The notes under the pieces are model-generated. The model was not told the DNA's origin, made no database searches, and saw only the letters and a program-made list of their open reading frames with translations. From an uncultured Acidobacteriota bacterium (lineage in GTDB: Bacteria > Acidobacteriota > Terriglobia > Acidiferrales > UBA7541), in contig CAWCPO010000013.1 of assembly GCA_963797345.1 (NCBI GenBank), forward strand, positions 18,830 through 82,829: a stretch of 64,000 bases of DNA, given 5' to 3'. The position numbers were made by a program, and so were the translations under genes. Positions 6,851-64,000 of this stretch are shown here, piece by piece (position 1 is the stretch's first letter; each line of letters starts with the position of its first letter).

Positions 6851-6908
6851 CTTCAGGGGTTAAAACCCGTGAGTTGTGGGGGCTTTTCGGCACGGCTGAA
6901 GCCGTGCC
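6851..6908. repeat. bipartite REP-like intergenic element: CTTCAGGGGTTAAAACCC box plus GGCACGGC-TGAA-GCCGTGCC hairpin
   Basis: Perfect 8-bp stem with a 4-nt loop at 6889-6908. A second copy with the same architecture and spacing is at 23234-23292. Confidence 0.5.
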
Positions 6909-6958
6909 CTGACACAAAGCATTTATGAGAGGGTTATAGCGAGCCGGAGGAAAACGGA

Positions 6959-7129
6959 ATGGCCAACGAAAAGCGGTACATCGCGCAAAAGCGTCAGAGG
7001 CGGCGGCGCAAGACCGCCAAGGCGAAAATGAAACTTTACGAGCAGGGGAAAATGCCACACGACAAACTTCCCTCCCTCGCGAAAAGGTTTCTCAGCCGCA
7101 AGATGCGGGCGCTGAAAAAAGCGGAATAA
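6959..7129 (+). CDS. small highly basic hypothetical protein (56 aa)
   Basis: ATG-to-TAA ORF below the track cutoff (MANEKRYIAQKRQRRRRKTAKAK...). No recognisable family; coding status uncertain. Confidence 0.35.
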   Translation: MANEKRYIAQKRQRRRRKTAKAKMKLYEQGKMPHDKLPSLAKRFLSRKMRALKKAE

Positions 7130-7166
7130 AACAAAAAAACGGGCGCCCCGGATTCCCGGGACGCCC
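7130..7166 (-). terminator. intrinsic terminator for the 7220..8011 gene
   Basis: GGGCGCCCCGG/CCGGGACGCCC stem with one mismatch and a 4-nt loop. On the minus strand it is followed by GTTTTTTTGTT. Confidence 0.6.
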
Positions 7167-7219
7167 GCTGGCCGTCTCCTCGCGCCGGCCCCCGCCAGGG
7201 CCGCGACGGGAGGGATTGT

Positions 7220-8011
7220 TCACATGCCCGAGTTGTCAGCCGCCTGCGCCGGAGCGGACTTCGGAACGCTCAGATAGCCCGTGATCTTGTTCTTCCCGAC
7301 CTGGTTCACAGTGAACTCGTAGGGTGCCGAGTGGCCGGAATTCGTGGGGAAGAAGTAGATGGGTTCGTCCACCGACCGGTTGTTCTTATCGAACCGCTGA
7401 TCGTTGACGTATACAGCCACGGAGTAGAGGTTCCTCTTGGGGTTCACGCTGCGGAGTTCGACCATCAGGTCGCCCACCTTTGTGCGCTGGCCCTTCTGGG
7501 TGATCGTGAACTCGTAATAATCGCGCTCGCCCATGCGGCGGAGTTCTTCGATCTGGTCATGGTTCTTGGCGATGAGGGTGCCGAACTCGCCCTTGGCCAT
7601 CTCCAAGCTGCTCTTAGTCGAGTCGAGGTCCGTCTTCACGGAATCGACATCGGTGCCAAGTTTATTCACGTCGTCCGTGCTGGCTTTGGTGGCCAATTGC
7701 CCGGCAACGTTGTTCTGCAGGTCCGCGAGTTGCTTGGCGTCGTCCGCTTTGATCTGAGCGGCTGTCCGATGCAGCTCGGTCGCCGACAGCTTCATCTTGT
7801 CCGCCACCACGCTCAATTCGCCCTGGAGCTGCGCGTTGGCGTCCTCCGCCTTCGCCAGCCGCTGGCTCAGCGTGTCTTCGTCCTGCTTGAATTGCTGCGT
7901 CTGCGCCGTCAGCGTCTGCGCGAGTGAACTCGATCGGTTCGATGCCGACCAGCCAACGCCCAAAGCGATCAGCGTTACCACCGCGACCCAATTCCTGCTA
8001 CCCCTATCCAC
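7220..8011 (-). CDS. membrane-anchored coiled-coil hypothetical protein
   Basis: 263 aa. N-terminal TM (NWVAVVTLIALGVGW), a long heptad-like Q/L/A/D/K-rich region, and a beta-rich C-terminal domain. No family recognised. Confidence 0.7.
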   Translation of the reverse strand: MDRGSRNWVAVVTLIALGVGWSASNRSSSLAQTLTAQTQQFKQDEDTLSQRLAKAEDANAQLQGELSVVADKMKLSATELHRTAAQIKADDAKQLADLQNNVAGQLATKASTDDVNKLGTDVDSVKTDLDSTKSSLEMAKGEFGTLIAKNHDQIEELRRMGERDYYEFTITQKGQRTKVGDLMVELRSVNPKRNLYSVAVYVNDQRFDKNNRSVDEPIYFFPTNSGHSAPYEFTVNQVGKNKITGYLSVPKSAPAQAADNSGM

Positions 8012-25740: not shown

Positions 25741-27788
<2,048 letters not shown>

Positions 27789-28807: not shown

Positions 28808-29104
28808 TCCACTGTGCCGGCGAAACTTCTGCAGCGCCAATTGCGACCTACGTGCAAGGAACTCGGTTTGCCACGAATTACGTGGCATGCCTTGCGCCAC
28901 TGCCACGCGACGTTGCTGGACGTTGTAGGAGCACCGCTGGGCACCGTGCAGGCGCTTTTAGGCCACGCATCGCCGGAAGTTACACGGCAAATTTATCTGC
29001 ACGCGATTCCGGAGGAACAGCGCAGAGCGGTTGAAAAGGTCGAGAAGCTCCTTATTGGACCCAAATGGACCCAAGTTTCGGGAGCCGAGCAAAGGCCGAA
29101 TTAG
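28808..29104 (+). pseudogene. 3' fragment of a tyrosine integrase, identical to the 3' end of the gene at 58281..59449
   Basis: Encodes ...ITWHALRHCHATLL...LLGHASPEVTRQIYLH (HxxR and catalytic Tyr) but lacks the N-terminal 290 or so codons. Part of a 368-bp exact repeat. Confidence 0.9.
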
Positions 29105-29175
29105 CAAGTGATTGAAATGCAGGGAGATGTTGGTGGACGTGGCCGGGATCGAACCGGCGACCCCCTGCTTGCAAA
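28808..29175. repeat. 368-bp direct repeat, copy 1 (integrase 3' end plus tRNA-Ala half)
   Basis: Base-for-base identical on visual alignment to 59153..59520 (offset 30,345). Confidence 0.9.
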
Positions 29176-29289
29176 CAAGGTGGGGATAAACCACTAAATG
29201 CTTTGTCTGGTGTCGCTTACACGGAAAATCAACGAGATTCTCGCTCTCTCAAACGTCCCGAAGTTGTCCCGAACATTCCCGTATTAGAT
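29131..29289 (-). repeat. att core (a) plus right arm. The core 29131-29175 is the 3' half of tRNA-Ala(TGC), anticodon loop to CCA.
   Basis: Minus strand reads TTTGCAA-GCAGG-GGGTC-GCCGG-TTCGATC-CCGGC-CACGTCC-A-CCA (U70 fits the Ala G3:U70 identity). The 5' side cannot form the anticodon or acceptor stems. The 159 bp are 97.5% identical to 31519-31677. Confidence 0.8.
29255..29273 (+). promoter_or_regulatory. tandem GTCCCGAA-gtt-GTCCCGAA (candidate arm-type recombinase site)
   Basis: Lies 80 nt from core (a). The same motif is at 31643-31661 and a variant (GTTCCCAA-gtt-GTTCCCGAA) at 59607-59626, 87 nt from core (c). Confidence 0.4.
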
Positions 29290-29604
29290 CTTCCGCGTTG
29301 CTGAGTTTCACCCGGCAGCATTACCCGCATGCCAGTTCTTCAGTTTCCCGATCGTTTCCGTGTTGCATATTCGTCCGCAACTTCTTCGATCACTTCCTGG
29401 AACCCCGTTTCCGGGACCACCCTTCCAGAATACTGGGATGGCTTCACACCGATGAACTGCAACATTCAATTTGCTTCACCATTCTCCTCCATCGATTGGC
29501 TTTGCTTGGTAAGTCTGAGCTAGCTGAAGAACCTGATTTTCTCGATCTCATCATGTAAGATCGAAAAAGCCTGCTAGAACTCTCGGGTTATCGAACCCGT
29601 CTCT

Positions 29605-30249
29605 ATGGACACTCCGCTCGAAAAGAGCAACAATCCGTGCACGATAGACTACGAATCTCTACTCAAGGAAGTGAGGGCGGATTCTTACGAGGCCGCAGTT
29701 TCATTCCTTATGGAGAACCTCCCCTTCGTTTGGCGCGACTCCTACCTCGAAATGATGCCAAGAGATACCAAGATTTTTAGATTTCAGTATGGAACATTCG
29801 AGTACATCTACGACGACTATGCCTCATTGGAAGCAACCGGAGCCGTGCCTTACGATCCCATAATCGAAGCAAGACTCGTCGGCGTTTCCGGGTGTTCGAC
29901 CCCCAAAGAAACTAAACGGGACGATTTTCGCCTCAGGGGATGGGTCGGTCCGACAGAAAAAGCCTTTGGCAGGGCCTGGGACAAAGGTCATTTCATGGCG
30001 CATTCGATTGGCGGGGCGGCTGACCAACTTGAAGTAAACGTCTTTGTCCAACGCCGCGACTTAAATCGCGGCTGGTCAGAAGCGGGTCGGCGGTATCGAG
30101 AAATGGAGAAGTACTGCAAATACCATCCGGGGACCTTCTGCTTCAGCCGCCCCTTGTATCTCGATCAAACAGCCAAGCCCGCATTCCTGGAATTTGGGAT
30201 TCTCAAGAATGTCCACGAGCTATCGGTCGAGTGCTTCGATAATCGATAG
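29605..30249 (+). CDS. DNA/RNA non-specific endonuclease (Endonuclease_NS_2-like) with an unknown 120-aa N-terminal domain
   Basis: WDKGHFMAHSIGGAADQLEVNVFVQRRDLNRGWSEAGRRYREMEKY...RPLYLDQTAKPAFLEFGI matches the D-x-GH-x-A-x-x-GG ... N ... Q ... N-R-G ... E pattern of this nuclease family. No signal peptide or delivery domain. Confidence 0.7.
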   Translation: MDTPLEKSNNPCTIDYESLLKEVRADSYEAAVSFLMENLPFVWRDSYLEMMPRDTKIFRFQYGTFEYIYDDYASLEATGAVPYDPIIEARLVGVSGCSTPKETKRDDFRLRGWVGPTEKAFGRAWDKGHFMAHSIGGAADQLEVNVFVQRRDLNRGWSEAGRRYREMEKYCKYHPGTFCFSRPLYLDQTAKPAFLEFGILKNVHELSVECFDNR

Positions 30250-30289
30250 TTGGGACACCTTCTCTGGGCACGAAGACCTAGGAGGCGCG

Positions 30290-31060
30290 TTGAGTGTAAG
30301 GGTCTATGTAGGCGGACTTCCATATTTAACTACCTCGGACGAGCTGCGGGATGCCGCCCGACAGATTAGGCCCGAGGCCACCGCAGAGATAGTCGTTGAC
30401 AAAATGACTGGCAGATCAAGAGCCTTCGGCTTTTGGACAGTGGCAGACGTATCGGCCGCAGAAGAGCTAATCGAAGCTTATAACGGCAAGGATCTTGGCG
30501 GTCGACGCTTGACGGTCGGTCACGCGAAACCATTTGAACCTCGACATCCCTTAAGGGCAGCTCTCCTAGAACCCTTGGCCGAACTCTCGGTAGAGTCTCC
30601 CATAGTTCGGGTCAGTGAGCAGGTGTGCGAAGATCTGATCGAGTTCTTCGCACGGCATCCCGACGAGATGAGGCTAATGCCACCCCGCCGATTTGAAGAG
30701 CTGATTGCGGACCTGTGGCAGAGGTTCGGCTATGAGGTCGAGCTTACGAAACAAACCCGCGACGGTGGAACGGATGTAATCGCCATCAAAAACTCAGAAG
30801 TCCATACCCGCTTCCTTATACAGTGCAAACGGCTGGCTCCGGGAAAGAAGGTCTCGGTCCAGCCAGTCAGGGAGCTCTTGGGTGTTAAGCAGGACATGGG
30901 TGGATCGAAGGCGGTGTTGGCCACAACTGTCTACTTCACACGTGACGCCCAGATGTTTATAGATCAGCATTGCTGGGAATTAGAAGGAAGAGACTACGAT
31001 GGCGTAGTTGCTTGGCTCCGGCAGGCGACCCAACCACAAAGTCAGACTGGCCTCAAGTAG
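30290..31060 (+). CDS. RRM (RNA recognition motif) fused to an Mrr_cat PD-(D/E)xK restriction-endonuclease domain
   Basis: TTG start 5 nt after AGGAGG. RNP2 VYVGGL and RNP1 RAFGFWTV. C-terminal half RRFEELIADLWQRFGYEVELTKQTRDGGTDVIAI...FLIQCKR is the Mrr_cat pattern. Confidence 0.7.
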   Translation: MSVRVYVGGLPYLTTSDELRDAARQIRPEATAEIVVDKMTGRSRAFGFWTVADVSAAEELIEAYNGKDLGGRRLTVGHAKPFEPRHPLRAALLEPLAELSVESPIVRVSEQVCEDLIEFFARHPDEMRLMPPRRFEELIADLWQRFGYEVELTKQTRDGGTDVIAIKNSEVHTRFLIQCKRLAPGKKVSVQPVRELLGVKQDMGGSKAVLATTVYFTRDAQMFIDQHCWELEGRDYDGVVAWLRQATQPQSQTGLK

Positions 31061-31420
31061 CTCGTCCTCTTGTTCTGCCTAGTGCGCATGATCGGTTTCT
31101 GGCTGTGAGTTCCGCGAAATCTGGCCCGAAGTCTGCTTGTGGGAACTTTGAATTCTGCCGAGAGCTCGCAGTCCATTGCGCGTCAATGACGGGCAATCCA
31201 TGCGTAGCAAGGCGCTACTGCTTTCTCGACGTGGCAAACCGACGCCTGAAATGCTCATGACCTCGATCCGGCCAACTCCGCCGAAAGTGGCTCCCTTTCT
31301 CGCCGTCCCTAGCATGTTGACGCTGATTCTTGCCTCTGTTGTACCGATTGTCCCGAGTTTGCACCAAAAAAATGCCGAGGAAAAAGCAGCTTACATCTAA
31401 ATAAGAGCAGGAGTTGAGTT

Positions 31421-31480
31421 CGTGGGCGTGAGGACATTCGAACTCCCGACCCCCTGTGTGAATAGCAGGTGGTTACGCGG
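31421..31480 (-). other. degenerate second tRNA-3'-half-like remnant
   Basis: Minus strand ACAGGGGGTCGGGAGTTCGAATGTCCTCACGCCCACGA aligns position-for-position with the Ala core. The T-stem is mispaired and there is no CCA. Confidence 0.3.
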
Positions 31481-31518
31481 GAAAACCTCCGACGGCATCG
31501 CATTGAAATGATAGTGGT

Positions 31519-31677
31519 TGGTGGACGTGGCCGGGATCGAACCGGCGACCCCCTGCTTGCAAACAAGGTGGGGATAAACCACTAAATGCTTTGTCTGGTG
31601 TCGCTTACACGGAAAATCAACGAGATTCTCGCTATCTCAAATGTCCCGAAGTTGTCCCGAGCATTCCGGTATTAGAT
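31519..31677 (-). repeat. att core (b) 31519-31563 plus right arm
   Basis: The core is identical to (a) and (c). The arm has 4 mismatches in 159 nt against 29131-29289. Confidence 0.8.
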
Positions 31678-32029
31678 TTCGAGCTTCCGTCCGAAAAACC
31701 ATCAATTGGACCGAATGGACCGAAACTCGAATCTGAGCCGTTGTTGGAAATAGCTGTACCTGCTTGATTCAAGATGAGCGGTCTGAGACATAGGACCAGA
31801 GATAAGTGGCGCGCCCAAGGGGACGATTTTAGAACTTTTCTCGGCGAATTGATGGCAGCCTTGCCACACATTGAATTTCCCGCTGGACTGAGCCTGTAGC
31901 CTGTTTGAGGCCCCCGAGGGCACTTTTCCCGTGATCTGACCTTCCAGGAGTCACGCAAGACCGCTGATGGGAATCACACACTTAACTTCTAATAGACGCC
32001 AAAAATGAAAAAAACCACAAGTACTAGCG

Positions 32030-33250: not shown

Positions 33251-33481
33251 GTGATCAAATCGGCACAAAATTATCCCATTTCCAGCGTCCTCGACACCGA
33301 GGCCAAGGTCAGGTTTGTTGTGCCCAAGTACCAGAGGGAATACATCTGGAGAAAAACGCACTGGGAGGACCTCTTTGACGACGTCCAAGCTAATCCGGAA
33401 GGACATTTCCTGGGTTCCATCATTTGCATCAATCGCGCCGAGGACGCGTACAAGGTGGTTCGAGTCCGCAGGCGGGAGTGA
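33251..33481 (+). pseudogene. N-terminal fragment of a DUF262 (GmrSD-type) protein
   Basis: FVVPKYQREYIWRKTHWEDLFDD...GHFLGSIICI is the DUF262 N-terminal signature. The ORF ends after 76 aa, whereas full-length members are several hundred aa. Confidence 0.6.
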
Positions 33482-57802: not shown

Positions 57803-58219
57803 ATGAAGTCTCGTCCAACCCAACTCGGTGTGCGCAAGAATACAGCGTCCTCAAGACAGCATGCCCCGCGCCTTTCAACAGGTACCGACTCGAATGCGCC
57901 TTGCATTGATGAAGGCGTCTCGGAAACAGAACGCTCTTCGATCCGCAACGATGGTCAAGCAGCAGAGTTTCAAGACGAACTGCATGCCGCGTCACAACAC
58001 GCGGCCACAGTGGGAAAAGAACGACACGAAGACCACCTTCTGACAGTTCACGAAGTAGCCGAGTTGTTGCGGGTGCCCGTGTCCTGGGTCTATGGACGCA
58101 TGCGTAGACGATCCACAGAGCGATTGCCCGCTTACCGTCTCGGGAAGTACTGGCGTTTCAGTGAGAGCGAAATACGTGCATGGGTTAAACGTCAGCATGG
58201 AGGCCAGCATGCTGCTTGA
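57803..58219 (+). CDS. xis: excisionase-family (MerR-like HTH_17) DNA-binding protein; start uncertain (58010 GTG possible)
   Basis: LLTVHEVAELLRVPVSWVYGRMRRR...LPAYRLGKYWRFSESEIRAWV is the classic excisionase/AlpA-type motif. Confidence 0.7.
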   Translation: MKSRPTQLGVRKNTASSRQHAPRLSTGTDSNAPCIDEGVSETERSSIRNDGQAAEFQDELHAASQHAATVGKERHEDHLLTVHEVAELLRVPVSWVYGRMRRRSTERLPAYRLGKYWRFSESEIRAWVKRQHGGQHAA

Positions 58220-58280
58220 TAGCAGAGCTACACTCATAGCTGACACAGGACAAGCCAAGCGGGCCATCGAAGGAGGAACG

Positions 58281-59449
58281 ATGGTTCGCAGGCGGTATCA
58301 ACGAGGTTCGCTTTTCAAGCGCGGCAAACGTGAAAGGGTCTGGGTTGCCCGCTGGTGGGAGGATGTGATCAACGCGGACGGAACAATGGGAAGGATGCGC
58401 CGTTCAATGGTAATCGGTACGGTTGCAGAACTAACCACGCGCCGTCTCGCCATGCATGCTCTCTCGCAGCGGCTCCTGCTTTTGAACAATGGGAGCCAAC
58501 ATCCACAAGCCATGCGCACGTTGAAGGACTTTGTGCGAATGGATTGGGAACCAGTAGTGCTTCCGACCCTTAAGTACGCAACACAAATGCATTACAAGTA
58601 CATGCTCCGCGTTCATCTGATTCCAGCATTTGGTGAACGACGGCTCCCTGATATTTCGCGCGCGGCGATTCAAGTATTGTTGGCCGCAAAGCTTCGCGAC
58701 GGGCTTTCTTGGGAGACCGTACATCACATCCGATGTGCGCTGAGCAAAGTGCTGGGTACTGCGGAGGAGTGGGGCTATATCTCCGACAATCCAGTACGCA
58801 AGACGCGACTCCCGAGAAGGGATTGCACTTCAGAACGGCCCATCGTTACGCCACAGCAAGTGAAGCGTCTGACAACCGCTCTTCCAGAGCCCGCCAAATC
58901 CATCGCGCTGCTTTTAGTGCTGACGGGATTACGAATTGGCGAGCTTCTCGCGCTTCGATGGAAGAACGCGGACCTGGACGACCAAATGCTGCGCGTAACC
59001 GAAACCGTTTACGAGGGGCACTTCGACAAGCCAAAGACAAAGCGAAGTGTCCGTGCAATTCCATTGTGTCGAGAAGCTGTGTCGATACTCTCCTCTTTGC
59101 GCCAAGATGCATGTGAACCTGAGCAATTAGTCTTCGCGACTTGCTCAGGCCGTCCACTGTGCCGGCGAAACTTCTGCAGCGCCAATTGCGACCTACGTGC
59201 AAGGAACTCGGTTTGCCACGAATTACGTGGCATGCCTTGCGCCACTGCCACGCGACGTTGCTGGACGTTGTAGGAGCACCGCTGGGCACCGTGCAGGCGC
59301 TTTTAGGCCACGCATCGCCGGAAGTTACACGGCAAATTTATCTGCACGCGATTCCGGAGGAACAGCGCAGAGCGGTTGAAAAGGTCGAGAAGCTCCTTAT
59401 TGGACCCAAATGGACCCAAGTTTCGGGAGCCGAGCAAAGGCCGAATTAG
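58281..59449 (+). pseudogene. int: tyrosine recombinase/integrase with a -1 frame break at about 59159-59162
   Basis: GAAGGAGGAACG-ATG start. MVRRRYQRGSLFKRGKRERVWVARWWEDV N-terminus and LTGLRIGELLALRW (Arg I) in frame A. HALRHCHATLL and RQIYLH (Tyr) in the frame of ORF 59141..59449. Confidence 0.9.
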
Positions 59450-59520
59450 CAAGTGATTGAAATGCAGGGAGATGTTGGTGGACGTGGCCGGGATCGAACC
59501 GGCGACCCCCTGCTTGCAAA
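59153..59520. repeat. 368-bp direct repeat, copy 2, including att core (c) at 59476-59520
   Basis: Identical to 28808-29175. The core is followed by unrelated sequence, not by a tRNA 5' half. Confidence 0.9.
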
Positions 59521-59697
59521 TGAGATTTAAGAATGCTATGTGGTTTTCGTTTCTTGCCTTTACCTATGTCGTGGTACACGGTTTTTGACGGTATTTGGCA
59601 GCATTTGTTCCCAAGTTGTTCCCGAATTTTTTTCGTGCCTGACCCCCTGCTTGCGCGTAGTTTACTGTGACAAGCTGCGACAGGTTACCGTGACGGC

Positions 59698-60540
59698 CTA
59701 ACCTCCGCTTTCGGGAGGCAGAGGCTTGTCCGGCGTGATGGCCGAGATGATTTCGGAAGCGGTGCGCTGGACGAGTTCGAGGCTCTCAAGCAGCACAACG
59801 GCGTCGCCATACCACAACGAGATGTAATCCGCGCTCGACGTTCCGGTCTCCAGGCCGATTGCTTGGCAAACCACAAACGCGACGGCCTCGGCTTCCGTTT
59901 CACGGATGCGCTTCGTCGTGCTTGCGCGGCGCTCGGTCCGGTGAAGTCGCTCGTGGGCTATTTCGTGTACCAGCGTTGCCACGGTTTCAGCCGGAGACTG
60001 GCCGGGTAACAGCTTAATCTTCCCGCCTTCTGAGATGCCCTTCGCGGGCGCGATGTCCTCCGAATATTCAAGCGCAATGCCTTGGTCCTGAATGAATTGT
60101 TCGAGCTGCTCGCGATGCACACCTGGATCGCCGTTGACGCTGCCGATTTGGGGCAACGGATTTCCTGCGGTCATACTCTCGTCGAAAACATAAACGGCAC
60201 GGAAGCCCGTCAGTGCGCGGGAGTCTTTGGAATCCAGCTTGGCATTTTCCCCTTCGTTGCTTTCGTCCCTGCGGCGACGAAACACGGGGGCAAGGATCAT
60301 GATTCCCTTCTCGCCTTTCTTGACGTATCGTCCCAACGATTTCCAGGTCTGATACCCGGCCACGCGCGTTGCTTGCGGGCAGGTTCGCGCGATAAGCATC
60401 ACGTTGAAAAAACTGTAACGGTGGAATCTGCCCATTGCTGCGAGATAATTCGTCAACGCTTCGCTGTGACCGGCATTGAGCGCCGTGACTAGCTCCTCGA
60501 TTGCCTTGCTTGTGATTTGTTTGATTTGTTCTGATTTCAT
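59698..60540 (-). CDS. ardC: ArdC-like antirestriction protein (ssDNA-binding N-domain plus zincin-like metallopeptidase)
   Basis: 280 aa. FHRYSFFNVMLI and GYQTWKSLGRYVKKGEKGI N-domain blocks. HEIAHERLH metallopeptidase motif. Confidence 0.85.
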   Translation of the reverse strand: MKSEQIKQITSKAIEELVTALNAGHSEALTNYLAAMGRFHRYSFFNVMLIARTCPQATRVAGYQTWKSLGRYVKKGEKGIMILAPVFRRRRDESNEGENAKLDSKDSRALTGFRAVYVFDESMTAGNPLPQIGSVNGDPGVHREQLEQFIQDQGIALEYSEDIAPAKGISEGGKIKLLPGQSPAETVATLVHEIAHERLHRTERRASTTKRIRETEAEAVAFVVCQAIGLETGTSSADYISLWYGDAVVLLESLELVQRTASEIISAITPDKPLPPESGG

Positions 60541-60554
60541 TTTTCTTTTCCTTT

Positions 60555-60616
60555 CGGTGAGTTTCGCTTCGGTCCCTTCAACCAGGCACAGGGACCGAAG
60601 CGAAACGCACTCACCG
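60555..60616 (-). promoter_or_regulatory. 62-nt bulged hairpin immediately 5' of the ardC RBS
   Basis: 7-bp plus 16-bp stems (CGGTGAG/CTCACCG; TTTCGCTTCGGTCCCT/AGGGACCGAAGCGAAA), a 4-nt bulge and a 12-nt loop. Ends 15 nt before the start codon. Confidence 0.5.
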
Positions 60617-60975
60617 GAAGGACAAGGCGGAAGTGGCTCACTGTTTGCGGCTGGAGCGGGTTGCAGCGGGCGTGACAGATCGCCATTTACCTGGCGCGAC
60701 CGTTGCTAGCGGAAGCCAGATGGGGCAAGCTTGGAAAGTCAATCTTAAATCGCTACCGAATTACCGACAATCCTCCACAAATCTGGTGAGCGTTAACTTA
60801 GAAGGTGTGACGGATCATTACATGATACGTGGCCTGCTTTGTTCTTCTGCAACTTACGTGTTCGGTGTTGTACGGTGTGTGGCATGATTGCGGCACGTTC
60901 TGCTCCCAAACTTGCTCCTATATTTGTGCTCTGACTAGCTGCCAGAATTTTAGAGGGTCAGCTACAGGGTGTTTT

Positions 60976-61209
60976 CTACGCCAGTTCAATCGTTACTCGC
61001 CGTCCGACCATCGCGGCCGCTCGTTGCAGGCTAGAAAGCGTGATGTCGCTCTTCGGATCAAGGAGTCGGTCAACCTGGGTGGGGCTTGTCTTGAGCAGAG
61101 CAGCACCAAGCGCTACGCCGAAAAGGTCCCGCCCACACTTGATGCTGGTCAGAATTGGTTGTTGACCATTTTCTCGCGGACTTCTTGAATCCAAGCACGA
61201 CGGCGTCAA
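60976..61209 (-). CDS. XRE-family HTH protein (antitoxin-like)
   Basis: 77 aa. The C-terminal TSPTQVDRLLDPKSDITLSSLQRAAAMVGRRVTIEL matches the HTH_3/XRE helix-3-onward pattern. 4-nt overlap with the upstream gene. Confidence 0.55.
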   Translation of the reverse strand: MTPSCLDSRSPRENGQQPILTSIKCGRDLFGVALGAALLKTSPTQVDRLLDPKSDITLSSLQRAAAMVGRRVTIELA

Positions 61210-61877
61210 GGTGGTTGAGCATTTCTCTGATCGAGGCTTTTGTCAAAGCGCATATACCTTTCCTTGTCGATCTCGCCGATGATCTGAAGTAGGCTCATTG
61301 CCATTCTCACGCACCCTTCTGCCTCAGGTTTGCCAAATTGTGCCTGGCCGAAATGCAATATCTTGTTCCGCTTGCGAAATAACTCTTCGGCGAAATACGA
61401 TTTCGGCGACCTGGCTCCTATATTCTGGTGAATCTGTTGGAGGACTGTTGCTAAATCCGTTCGACGGACCAGGAAAGCGTCGAAGTTTTCACCAACGAGT
61501 AGTTGAGTGATACAGTCGAGCTTGCCCGTAATACCGCCTTGGACTCTCCGGAACTCCTCTTCCCACGCGTCAGTGTGGGTTTGCGTTACTTCACATGGGA
61601 TCAGGCCAGCATCGAGCATTTTCCACTTGGAGTGCAAAAATGCCAGTTCGCATTCGACACACATCGCACTCAGGATGATTGCAAGTGAAAAGTCTTCGCC
61701 TAGCAATTCAGCTTCGGCCCGGCAAAGCACTCTGCGGCTAACGGGTATGCTGGATTGCACGACATAGATGGTAGCGCCGCACTCGCACTGTAAGTCCGGG
61801 TACGGCTCATTTCCCTTCGTCTCAACGGTGAGACGTTTTCCACATGTCGGGCAAGGTACCAACATCGGGAACTTCAT
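61206..61877 (-). CDS. zinc-ribbon protein with a HEPN-like (Rx4-6H) helical domain
   Basis: 223 aa. CPTCGKRL...CECG ribbon. ELFRKRNKILHFGQ contains the R-N-x-x-x-H motif typical of HEPN/DUF4145 RNases. Confidence 0.5.
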   Translation of the reverse strand: MKFPMLVPCPTCGKRLTVETKGNEPYPDLQCECGATIYVVQSSIPVSRRVLCRAEAELLGEDFSLAIILSAMCVECELAFLHSKWKMLDAGLIPCEVTQTHTDAWEEEFRRVQGGITGKLDCITQLLVGENFDAFLVRRTDLATVLQQIHQNIGARSPKSYFAEELFRKRNKILHFGQAQFGKPEAEGCVRMAMSLLQIIGEIDKERYMRFDKSLDQRNAQPP

Positions 61878-62003
61878 GACCGGAAGTGTAGACCGAGTGA
61901 GCGTTTGTAGCTATGTTTCTCGAAGGTCTCCTGAGGCAGTGCAGACCGGCAATGACCGACCGGACGCCAACTCGCCGCAGATGTTGAGAACGGAGAATGA
62001 ACC

Positions 62004-62228
62004 ATGAAGCGAGAACCGATGTGGGCGCATTGGGACGGCTCGGGCTACTCGAAACTCTACCAACTATACCGAAGAGTTCAAATAGTGGCTGTCAAATTAA
62101 ACAGACGCAGGAAACTTAGATGGGTGCCAATCAAAAGGTACAACAGTGAGCTTTACGCCATTTCGGACCAACTGAAGGTGCTCGATGGAGAGTACGATCG
62201 GCAAAGAAGGAAAGCCCCGAGGCGCTGA
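62004..62228 (+). CDS. hypothetical basic protein (74 aa)
   Basis: ORF only. Partly overlapped by an antisense ORF (62153..62578). Coding strand unresolved. Confidence 0.25.
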   Translation: MKREPMWAHWDGSGYSKLYQLYRRVQIVAVKLNRRRKLRWVPIKRYNSELYAISDQLKVLDGEYDRQRRKAPRR

Positions 62229-62527
62229 ACGAACGGCACGTCGTCTCCTTTACGCACCAAGCGCACCTTGCTGCGATGCATGTTCATTATCTGAAGGAAG
62301 CACAGCGCTCTGTTTTGCGAGGTGGCGAGCCCAGAAGGAAGGCTGGCCGAGAGAGTAACGGAAAGTTCTGAGTTGCTGATCTTGTACATCTGCACGACTG
62401 TTCCATTGTGGGCTAGCTGTTCGCCAACTAAGCTACCCGACATAGAGGGAACGCTGATGAAAATCATGCGCATGGTTATTGGGTTCTTCTGCTGGCTGTT
62501 GCAGGAGGCACGGCTCACGGGCAAATT

Positions 62528-63532
62528 GTGAATCGAGTAGCCGAAGTTTCGAATTCTGTGCGCGCACGAGACCGCCAATCGCCAGCCACACGGAGGAGCA
62601 TACCAGCGATAGCCAAAGCCGCAGATGGGGCTATCGTATCAATCGTCCTGTCGGACAAAGATGGTCACGCTATCGCCCAAGGCAGCGGCTTCGTTGTAAG
62701 CAGCGATGGCATCATCATGACAAATTATCACGTCATTGAGGAAGGTAGTTCCGCCATCGTTAAGCTCCCTGACGGCGCATTCTTTGTTGTCGATGGATTG
62801 CTCGCATCCGACAAAGCCCGCGATATGGCCATCATCAAGGCACACGGCAAAAACTTTCGGACGCTCACTCTCGGAAATTCGGATCGACTTCAAGTAGGAG
62901 AGGAAGTCGTTGCTATTGGTAATCCGCTTTCTCTCGAATCGACCGTCTCAAATGGCATAGTCAGTGGGATCCGTACAGTCGAGGAGAAGGGCGGCAAGTA
63001 CTTGCAAATCACCGCGCCCATCTCCCCCGGTAGCAGCGGCGGGCCACTTTTCAATATGGCGGGACAGGTAATTGGGATCACAACTATGTACATCCAAGGA
63101 GGCGAAAACTTAAATTTCGCAATCCCCATAAATGACGCCAAACCTCTGCTGGCGGAATCCGAAGGGCCAGAGGCGGCAGCCGATCTATCGGGCGATTACG
63201 CCTGCGATGTTGATGTCATTCCGATGCATTTAACTCTCAACGTGTCGGGACAGGTCCTCGTTCTAACTATTCATTCTAGTAACGGGGCAGAGGGGGAGAC
63301 GCGTTTCCACCGGGATGGCCATACATGGATCGAAGAAGGTGCGGGGGATTATCTTTACAAGCTCGGAGAACCCACCCCTACTTTTTCCGTTACGAATACA
63401 ATGCGCTTTTTTCTCCGCAATACGTTCGTGTATGACAAATCTCGAGGAGAAATGTACGCCGGCGCCGAGACAGTAGGCTATCCTCCGTACCTAACTCTTT
63501 CCGGAACCTGCAAGCGGGTGCCAGCAAAATAA
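62528..63532 (+). CDS. trypsin-like (S1C/HtrA-type) serine protease without PDZ or signal peptide, plus an unknown 130-aa C-terminal domain
   Basis: GSGFVVSSDGIIMTNYHV (His), DMAIIK (Asp), and TAPISPGSSGGPLFN (Ser) catalytic blocks. GTG start. Confidence 0.8.
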   Translation: MNRVAEVSNSVRARDRQSPATRRSIPAIAKAADGAIVSIVLSDKDGHAIAQGSGFVVSSDGIIMTNYHVIEEGSSAIVKLPDGAFFVVDGLLASDKARDMAIIKAHGKNFRTLTLGNSDRLQVGEEVVAIGNPLSLESTVSNGIVSGIRTVEEKGGKYLQITAPISPGSSGGPLFNMAGQVIGITTMYIQGGENLNFAIPINDAKPLLAESEGPEAAADLSGDYACDVDVIPMHLTLNVSGQVLVLTIHSSNGAEGETRFHRDGHTWIEEGAGDYLYKLGEPTPTFSVTNTMRFFLRNTFVYDKSRGEMYAGAETVGYPPYLTLSGTCKRVPAK

Positions 63533-63841
63533 CCACGCGACCATCGCTGTTCGATCTCGTCCATACTCGGCGTTCAGGGGGAGGCCAGGGCCATGACGGC
63601 CTTTGCCTAACCATTTCAAGTGATTCGAATTCGCTAAGGACGTGGTCATTCCGGGATTTCAGGTAGGCCAAGCGTGATGACCGGCCAGCGCCGGGCCGCC
63701 ATGTTTTCATGCTTGACGGGGAAGAGCATTTTGGCGCTTGTCTTTCGTTAGCAGACTTAGAACGATTGACGGAGTCCTTGCAGCGTAGCAACGCCTGCCC
63801 TGTTCATCGCTTACCGCCTTTCGGGCTGCTCAGCGTTTGAT

Positions 63842-64000
63842 ATTACTTAACCTCGATCCAAAAATCATGGGGAGGTTCACTACCATCTTCCGTAATTACT
63901 CCGGACAATGATACTCGGCCCATTCATGCTCGCCTTGGTCTGTGTATCGCGTATGCCCAGTAAAAGTGGCCTCAATATGATGCATCGGGCATTCGACTTG
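63842..64000 (-). CDS. 3' end of an unidentified ORF entering from the right window edge
   Basis: Open minus-strand frame over 52 codons (...QVECPMHHIEATFTGHTRYTDQGEHEWAEYHCPGVITEDG...EVK*), with Cys/His spacing. Not in the track because it has no start. Confidence 0.25.

Follow-up and report, generated by a model that had tools for sequence, protein, structure and literature searches.

Here we describe a small islet, E_a, in a 64,000-nucleotide (nt) stretch of DNA, referred to below as the window, from an uncultured Acidobacteriota bacterium (assembly GCA_963797345.1, contig CAWCPO010000013.1). E_a is the stretch between the first two of three copies of a direct repeat (29176–31516), and its only real cargo is a pair of genes: gene1 (29605–30249, + strand), for a predicted cytoplasmic His-Me-finger (beta-beta-alpha-Me) nuclease of 214 amino acids (aa) in the DNA/RNA non-specific endonuclease superfamily, and gene2 (30290–31060, + strand), for a 256-aa protein in which an RNA recognition motif (RRM) is fused to an Mrr-type PD-(D/E)xK nuclease. 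On the reading that we favour, and to which we give about even credence, E_a is a small, passive, integrase-less islet of an array built on ssrA, the gene for transfer-messenger RNA (tmRNA), and its cargo operon encodes two separable candidate defence nucleases. The two genes share a strand and lie 40 nt apart, as stated in an initial annotation of this DNA, with no + strand terminator predicted between them; ~180 nt of upstream sequence, gene1, the 40-nt spacer and gene2 make up a cassette of 1.65 kb (29425–31070, + strand). Across other genomes and metagenomes the pair is a recurrent but optional association for both partners.

Gene2 joins an RNA recognition motif to an Mrr-type nuclease

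Gene2 starts with a TTG codon at 30290, 4 nt downstream of an AGGAGG ribosome-binding site that we read directly from the sequence (30280–30285, + strand), and its homologues begin at the same residue. The RRM (aa 5–74, nt 30302–30511; Pfam RRM_1, E = 3e-13) is canonical and intact, with RNP2 (VYVGGL) and RNP1 (RAFGF) both present; it matches PABP, hnRNP A1 and others in a profile search of the Protein Data Bank (PDB), and Rbp_regulator in NCBIfam. A linker of ~50 aa leads to the Mrr_cat PD-(D/E)xK nuclease domain (aa 130–226, nt 30677–30967; Pfam E = 2.7e-23, above the cut-off), in which E136, D162 and K180 are invariant across 16 homologues and position 178 is either Q or E. The N terminus gave no match to the winged-helix (wH)/Mrr_N domain, the canonical RRM being found there instead. 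Pfam and fold comparison thus bear out the domain calls of the initial annotation: an RRM and an Mrr-type domain in gene2, and an NS-type nuclease in gene1.

Among the 120 best matches to the gene2 Mrr domain (50–60% identical) in a search of 5.8 billion proteins, 16 are full-length RRM-Mrr proteins; others join the domain to TIR (29), sigma70_r4 (13), MerR (3) or dUTPase (1), and the rest carry it alone. The RRM and linker, used as a query by themselves, retrieved three short RRM proteins and nothing else, and a PHROG match ties the Mrr domain to a ‘cold shock protein’ family.

The loci that carry RRM-Mrr (designated here by L numbers) are varied. A protein 56% identical to gene2 (L135, 6001–6798, and L148) is encoded as a moron between the tail-tube and tape-measure genes of a siphovirus-like phage (IMG/VR UViG 3300010051_000523), the sole viral contig with RRM-Mrr. 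Elsewhere RRM-Mrr adjoins the integrase of integrative elements (L139, L142), stands beside Mrr-TIR or TIR proteins (L132, L141), or lies in a region with Tn3, a Gp49/HTH toxin–antitoxin pair and a methyltransferase (L137). Plasmids in PLSDB yielded Mrr-domain matches only and no RRM-Mrr, and no third gene was common to RRM-Mrr loci, save TIR proteins in two of them. Such contexts are those expected of a gene for defence or exclusion that is modular and mobile and works as a single protein, and we consider a role of this kind for RRM-Mrr rather probable.

The TIR neighbours take two forms: in L132 an Mrr_cat–TIR fusion (6898–7806, − strand) is convergent to RRM-Mrr, and in L141 RRM-Mrr lies between a TIR protein and a CAP12-PCTIR TIR protein (3–794, − strand).

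Gene1 belongs to a strongly conserved nuclease family

At the sequence level the Pfam match of gene1 to Endonuclea_NS_2 (E = 0.007) is sub-threshold, scoring 16.9 bits where 27 are required, and a precomputed PF13930 match is present in just 2 of its 120 best homologues. Its AlphaFold2 model, made with 27 homologues (pLDDT 80, pTM 0.80), matches Serratia nuclease in a Foldseek search of the PDB (4e3y, E = 4.5e-5, prob 1.0, 194 columns), as well as EXOG, the toxin nuclease EsaD and EndA (PDB; 194–214 columns) and, in BFVD, a viral EndoG-like protein (E = 8e-6, TM 0.53); the TM-scores of these structural matches are only 0.44–0.53. K127-G128-H129, N145 and E168 do not vary among 27 family members, and conservation reaches at least 90% at D126 and N154. 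The D126-K127-G128-H129 motif aligns to the active site of EndA, DKG(H), and N154 falls within the motif DLNRGW; we take the catalytic residues of gene1 to correspond to H89, N119 and E127 of Serratia nuclease. As modelled, gene1 has the fold and the active-site signature of a DNA/RNA non-specific endonuclease (His-Me finger group 5).

The initial annotation had described gene1 as an Endonuclease_NS_2-type nuclease with an unknown N-terminal domain. The nuclease type holds, but since the structural matches span almost the whole protein the N-terminal part is mostly nuclease fold, which leaves as an addition only a helical stretch of roughly 50 residues at the very start. We detected no signal peptide and no toxin-delivery domain in gene1, and we rejected the idea that it is the tip of an RHS toxin, as it resembles no other sequence in the window.

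The gene1 family comprises ~780 clusters at 50% identity, mostly of 200–250 aa, and spans Acidobacteriota, Verrucomicrobiota, Bacteroidota, Desulfobacterota and a Heliomicrobium; a homologue occurs in 50 of 185,579 species genomes. At these 50 loci, all-versus-all clustering of open reading frames (ORFs) and a Pfam search of 150 neighbours revealed no conserved neighbour, partner or immunity gene. Genes within two positions on either side of gene1 include PADLOC matches to MADS, PARIS AriA, Shango SngC, BrxH, PifA, PD-T7-4, Dsr2, Shedu and dCTPase, strong defence-model matches making up roughly 10–20 of the 150 neighbour proteins (about 10%). Gene1 represents a separate, widespread and uncharacterised family, cytoplasmic, usually alone and often in defence-rich neighbourhoods, for which we put a defence or exclusion role at slightly short of an even chance.

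Longer relatives of gene1 were never found fused to an RRM or Mrr domain; their extra parts are a ~140-aa N-terminal extension, HEAT repeats and a helicase fragment. The extension, unannotated and with the motif RQKYYFxDY, marks a sub-family of 337–367 aa (P0301, P0331, P0342, P0366, P0370, P0384 and P0387), and the HEAT repeats occur in P0329. Two gene1 homologues lie beside prokaryotic ubiquitin-like and E2 genes (Prok_Ub, Prok-E2_D; L144, 746–3012, and L002, 4402–5154), which are components of conjugation-type conflict systems. In a member of the Pyrinomonadaceae, a lone 140-aa RRM protein (L029, 5457–5879, − strand) is divergent from a gene1 homologue at a distance of 130 nt, a single case that may be due to chance.

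The two genes pair recurrently but optionally

Pairing could be judged at 12 RRM-Mrr loci and, from the gene1 side, at 50 loci in species-representative genomes, where Mrr was sought within 6 kb. Gene1 adjoins RRM-Mrr in 5 of the 12; these pairs show two orientations and draw on three lineages of gene1, which are 85%, 62% and about 50% identical to the gene1 of the window. The closest relatives (L132–134; gene1 85% and gene2 76% identical) are co-directional and keep the 40-nt spacer, their DNA matching window positions 29425–31070 as one block at 81% nucleotide identity within other flanks that have no 47-nt repeats. In L140 the genes are again co-directional, with an 89-nt spacer (gene1 46%, gene2 57% identical), whereas in L147 they are convergent with stop codons 3 nt apart, gene2 being 75% identical and gene1, of another lineage, 62%. 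A further pair, P0002 and P0125, shares one contig of 3,138 nt. Two orientations and three gene1 lineages suggest more than one juxtaposition, so the adjacency probably arose, or was rebuilt, more than once; and because gene1 is present in just 50 of 185,579 species, adjacency at this frequency is far above chance. The initial annotation had named an absence of the pair elsewhere as grounds for giving up the idea of a system, and in L132–134, L140, L147 and P0002/P0125 the pair does recur.

Both genes also occur apart. RRM-Mrr lacks gene1 at 7 of the 12 loci (L139, L141, L135, L137, L142, L052 and L053), and paired and unpaired members interleave in the RRM-Mrr tree. Neither Mrr nor RRM-Mrr was found within 6 kb of gene1 at any of the 50 genome loci, nor gene1 at any of 80 metagenome loci of the Mrr family. 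L146 has a gene1 75% identical to that of the window and no RRM-Mrr, and in L144/145 all that is left of RRM-Mrr is a remnant of its first 38 codons, 41 nt beyond an intact gene1 (80% identical). Pairing is strongly asymmetric, involving ~40% of RRM-Mrr genes versus <2% of gene1 genes.

Since pairing is optional for both partners and asymmetric, an obligate toxin–antitoxin or immunity link is excluded and a cooperative two-gene system is weakened, though left standing. Two proposals of the initial annotation fare accordingly. A conserved two-gene system is left without support by the solitary genes on both sides, among them gene1 relatives 75–80% identical to that of the window without an intact partner, and a toxin–antitoxin pair is contradicted by L144/145, where gene1 stays intact although RRM-Mrr has been deleted. 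That gene1 and gene2 cooperate at all seems to us doubtful.

The bounding repeats most likely derive from the 3′ end of ssrA

An exact 47-nt direct repeat occurs three times in the window. Copy 1 (29129–29175) is the left boundary of E_a, and copy 2 (31517–31563) is both its right boundary and the left boundary of the next element, E_b, which runs to copy 3 (59474–59520). A 22-nt sub-pattern of the repeat matches three times in the window, with none expected from shuffles. The initial annotation had E_a bounded by direct repeats and devoid of an integrase, which agrees with the exact copies on either side and with an ORF list that contains no integrase between 29176 and 31516. E_a therefore has the same attachment (att) repeats as an integrase-bearing relative and no integrase of its own.

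Rightward of copies 1 and 2, 110 of 114 nt are identical (29176–29289 and 31564–31677), or 157 of 161 nt (97.5%) with the core included. The initial annotation gave this figure correctly and spoke of a right arm; on the + strand the shared stretch lies at the left end of E_a and E_b alike. GC content is 52.7% in E_a compared with 60–61% in the kdp-operon backbone to its left, and the fall begins exactly at copy 1. A scan of E_a for tandem repeats, RNA elements, promoters and terminators gave nothing above background. A decayed T-arm-like fragment (31418–31464, − strand), 66% identical to the core and 52 nt left of copy 2, could be what is left of an earlier att site within E_a.

The repeat is real, as the initial annotation held, and it is not an anonymous att core. 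In a permissive Rfam search, the minus strand of core plus arm (31519–31700) aligns to positions 217–374 of the tmRNA model (E = 3e-4, 15 bits, below the tmRNA gathering score of 47), and the alignment takes in the T-arm, the acceptor 3′ strand, the CCA and the motif GACAAAGCAUUUAG (consensus GACUAAGCAUGUAG). Cores 2 and 3, searched separately, match the tmRNA model at E ~ 1e-3 over the core alone. We had also considered a tRNA gene as the att site, the core resembling by eye the 3′ half of tRNA-Ala; because the permissive search returned tmRNA matches and none to a tRNA family, the 47-nt repeats most probably duplicate the 3′ end of ssrA, a well-documented site of island integration (PMC3146451). 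All three copies lie in the − strand sense. Copy 1 owes its assignment (T-arm, acceptor 3′ strand and CCA) to its identity with copies 2 and 3. The shared arm, too, probably comes from ssrA and travels with the elements: arm copy 2 (− strand), with its core, aligns to the tmRNA model in its 3′ part below the gathering score, and arm copy 1 (− strand), by the alignment of this twin, is probably more of the ssrA 3′ body. Copy 3 has no tmRNA body to its right. No intact tRNA or tmRNA was found anywhere in the window (ARAGORN; Rfam at gathering scores), a search of the window for the tmRNA 5′ end gave chance-level matches only, and the intact ssrA expected at the end of the array does not lie within the window.

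The neighbouring element and the state of the array

The sequence to the left of copy 1 is not chromosomal, since 28808–29175 (368 nt) is 100% identical to 59153–59520 at the right end of E_b. This duplicate consists of the last ~96 codons of the E_b integrase, a 24-nt spacer and the core; its coding part next to E_a is a tyrosine integrase 3′ fragment (28808–29104, + strand; Phage_integrase profile positions 110–169, E = 1e-10). Judging by these identities, the junction at 28808–29289 has the appearance of an E_b-type element whose two ends have been joined.

The tyrosine integrase gene of E_b (58092–59449, + strand) is read in two frames, 58092–59273 covering Pfam positions 3–118 and 59141–59449 covering positions 110–169, with the frameshift near 59160, no more than 10 nt from the left edge (59153) of the perfect 368-nt duplicate of the sequence next to kdpC. 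E_b also has an HTH_17 gene of the excisionase/AlpA type (57803–58219, + strand). The description of E_b as integrase-bearing in the initial annotation is thus right as to the presence of the gene and needs the qualification that a frameshift splits it; this gene is also the sole integrase in the window for the repeats of E_a. The kdpB gene is likewise broken, into three frames (ORFs 25741–26661, 26537–27757 and 27600–27788), as a pseudogene or through assembly indels, and because of this second case the integrase frameshift is possibly an assembly indel too.

What emerges is a tandem array, now decayed, at a site of the ssrA type, in which E_a is a unit without an integrase. Cis-mobilisable elements (CIMEs), a concept from the ICESt elements of Streptococcus thermophilus, offer an analogy on which trans-mobilisation of E_a by the E_b integrase, the satellite idea of the initial annotation, is conceivable. 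As in ssrA-targeting tandem islands and CIMEs, direct repeats, here most likely of the ssrA 3′ end, delimit the elements, and an integrase-less unit carries the end sequences of an integrase-bearing neighbour; unlike in those, the window has no intact ssrA, the E_b integrase is frameshifted, and the cassette also occurs without repeats (L132–134).

Most of E_b is filled by a polymorphic-toxin array: between 34956 and 55500 lie an RHS/YD-repeat gene (1806 aa) and then 7–8 repeated RHS C-terminal cassettes, in repeat families D1–D12 that are 70–100% identical. Near its left end, a type IV restriction enzyme of the GmrSD_N/DUF262 kind is represented by a fragment of 76 aa (33251–33478, + strand; Pfam E = 4e-13), cut off just before the RHS-related gene. 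To the right of copy 3, an ArdC-like anti-restriction gene (59698–60540, − strand), a gene for a trypsin-like peptidase and a gene with a weak Lar-like match (61206–61877, − strand; Pfam E ~ 1e-3, with 19.8 bits below the cut-off of 28.6) suggest that 59521–64000 is probably another mobile element.

A proposed mode of action and its relation to described systems

Most likely, gene2 would act as a single-protein restriction-like or abortive-infection nuclease. The RRM would replace the usual modified-DNA reader of Mrr enzymes and bind single-stranded RNA (or single-stranded DNA, ssDNA) of an invader, and binding would recruit or license the PD-(D/E)xK domain, so that nucleic acid is cut. Gene1 would be a Mg-dependent, sugar-non-specific nuclease, presumably co-transcribed with gene2, that probably adds bulk degradation.

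We compared both proteins with PADLOC-DB v2.0.0 (2023) and obtained no full-length match of gene1 or gene2 to any of its systems, in line with the initial annotation, which had not recognised the pairing as a described one. Gene2 has domain-level partial matches over its Mrr domain to PDC-S02 (positions 178–290 of 334), mREase_IV and ZorD. The nearest relatives are the Mrr-type type IV restriction enzymes, which depend on modification, and candidate defence proteins with a lone Mrr domain (PADLOC mREase_IV, PDC-S02), which, like gene2, have a C-terminal Mrr_cat domain with D...(Q/E)xK, unite reader and nuclease in one polypeptide and occur in mobile or defence contexts. The reader of Mrr enzymes is a winged-helix domain for modified DNA, whereas gene2 has an RRM, a binder of single-stranded RNA or DNA, and its match to the PADLOC Mrr models covers the nuclease domain only, about one third of the profiles. 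The literature that we searched held nothing specific on RRM-Mrr fusions, NA-iREase1 or Endonuclea_NS_2 in defence.

The concept of immune nucleases that swap sensors (bioRxiv 10.1101/2023.08.10.552793; PMC12205087) provides a parallel in organisation. Shedu, a single-protein immune nuclease, and the short-Argonaute systems SPARDA, whose Mrr/PD-(D/E)xK-type effectors are activated when nucleic acid is sensed, likewise combine a constant nuclease core with interchangeable sensor or partner domains, much as the gene2 Mrr core carries RRM, TIR, HTH, MerR or dUTPase; Shedu, however, is DUF4263, a nuclease family other than that of gene2, and SPARDA has Argonaute/APAZ, for which gene2 has no counterpart. 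CoCoNuTs are type IV restriction-like systems predicted to target RNA (PMC10542128); they combine restriction-type nucleases with RNA-binding domains and place tandem nucleases in one locus, as the E_a cassette does. They are McrBC-based (GTPase and coiled coils, with CSD, YTH and SmpB-like domains), and the paper mentions no RRM, whereas the cassette has no McrB or McrC; gene2 is conceptually near CoCoNuTs with no components in common. Gene1, for its part, shares with His-Me finger group 5, which holds Serratia nuclease, EndoG/EXOG, NucA, EndA and the EsaD/YxiD toxins (Jablonska 2017, PMC5714182), the fold, the DxGH general base, the Asn metal ligand and a downstream Glu; it differs in being small, in lacking a signal peptide, a delivery domain and a linked inhibitor or immunity gene, and in forming a sequence-divergent, tightly conserved family of its own. 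It is plausible that the two-nuclease cassette is a variant of nuclease-based defence rather than a demonstrated two-gene system.

Alternative explanations

A genuine cooperative two-gene defence, in which the RRM senses invader RNA or ssDNA and both nucleases act as a unit (nicking, then bulk degradation), would fit the pairing at 5 of 12 RRM-Mrr loci despite the rarity of gene1, the two orientations and three lineages, the kept 40-nt spacing within a block conserved up to and including its upstream region (L132–134), and the lone RRM protein divergent beside a gene1 homologue in L029. Against it stand the 50 unpaired genome loci of gene1, the close gene1 relatives without an intact partner, the 7 RRM-Mrr loci without gene1, phage and island copies included, and the lack of a third conserved component; because both genes occur unpaired, each persists and presumably functions alone, and we judge this explanation unlikely. 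A non-defensive origin, with unrelated selfish or accessory nucleases (for DNA uptake or scavenging, repair, RNA processing or homing-type activity) accumulating in the same integration hot spots, strikes us as quite unlikely. It is consistent with a gene1 that is highly conserved, partnerless and often beside housekeeping genes, with the lack of matches to named systems in defence or phage libraries, and with the fact that bacterial RRM proteins are usually RNA chaperones or regulators, as the Rbp_regulator match recalls. Yet the contexts of RRM-Mrr are nearly all of mobile-element or defence type, roughly a tenth of gene1 neighbours are strong PADLOC matches, and hot-spot accumulation leaves the direct adjacency in several diverged lineages unaccounted for; extracellular scavenging in particular is unlikely because neither protein has a secretion signal. 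A toxin–antitoxin or immunity arrangement, with gene1 as the toxin (perhaps an orphan polymorphic-toxin tip linked to the RHS array) and gene2 as its neutraliser, or the reverse, could appeal to Endonuclea_NS_2 domains being typical polymorphic-toxin tips (PMC5714182), to EsaD among the fold matches and to the large RHS array 4 kb away. It is highly improbable, and the co-occurrence data already go most of the way to refuting it: gene1 stands alone at all 50 genome loci, where no small neighbour is conserved, and is intact after the deletion of RRM-Mrr in L144/145, while RRM-Mrr stands alone at 7 loci. Nor does gene1 have an RHS or delivery domain or resemble any other part of the window, and gene2, its catalytic residues intact, is a nuclease in its own right.

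The reading of E_a as an ssrA-array islet with two separable nucleases has its own weak points. The islet architecture, E_a as a repeat-bounded unit next to E_b, could be an assembly artefact of repeats in a metagenome bin; such an error is possible in a metagenome-type contig with perfect repeats of more than 300 nt and frameshifted kdpB and integrase genes. The perfect 368-nt and 161-nt repeats exceed typical k-mers, and the contig of the same locus in an independent Logan assembly has one break within the arm and another at 31281, where E_a is non-coding towards its right end. That same assembly, however, reproduces the inner 2,066 nt of E_a (29216–31281) at 100% identity, the GC drop falls exactly at copy 1, and the arm copies are distinct loci because they differ at 4 positions, which leaves the artefact a slim chance. 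Several observations on the genes also weigh against the favoured reading. Gene1 falls under the Pfam gathering score for PF13930 or PF01223, has no match in PADLOC (E ≤ 1), PHROG or NCBIfam, and is absent from IMG/VR and PLSDB; its mean column identity of 66% across phyla is unusually high for a defence gene, and about half of its neighbours are of housekeeping type (citrate synthase, NADH dehydrogenase and MeaB among them). A cytoplasmic non-specific nuclease without a partner also raises the puzzle of how its host tolerates it. The gene2 model is of low confidence in its Mrr half (pLDDT <50), too poor for a fold search. Recurrent adjacency, seen in two orientations, hints that the word ‘optional’ understates how far the two genes are functionally coupled. 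To a bolder proposal we assign low credence: that RRM-Mrr, with or without gene1, is a new class of restriction-like immunity in which cleavage of DNA is licensed by an RRM that recognises transcripts of the invader or single-stranded intermediates of replication, that the pair is a two-nuclease anti-phage system, and that the ~780-cluster gene1 family is a stand-alone defence nuclease.

Implications

If RRM-Mrr is defensive, a classical RRM, a domain best known from eukaryotic RNA biology, would occupy the sensor slot of a restriction-type nuclease and, if so, would extend the idea, put forward for CoCoNuTs, that some type IV-like systems read RNA, not modified DNA. If it is not, the finding would be two orphan nucleases on a decayed ssrA island. 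The 1.65-kb cassette is compact and readily cloned. The unusual feature of the locus is the RRM on a restriction-type nuclease, and the puzzling family is that of gene1, a group of intracellular non-specific nucleases that is of considerable size, highly conserved and entirely uncharacterised, and has no visible inhibitor; the way in which cells tolerate and use these enzymes would be informative whatever their role.

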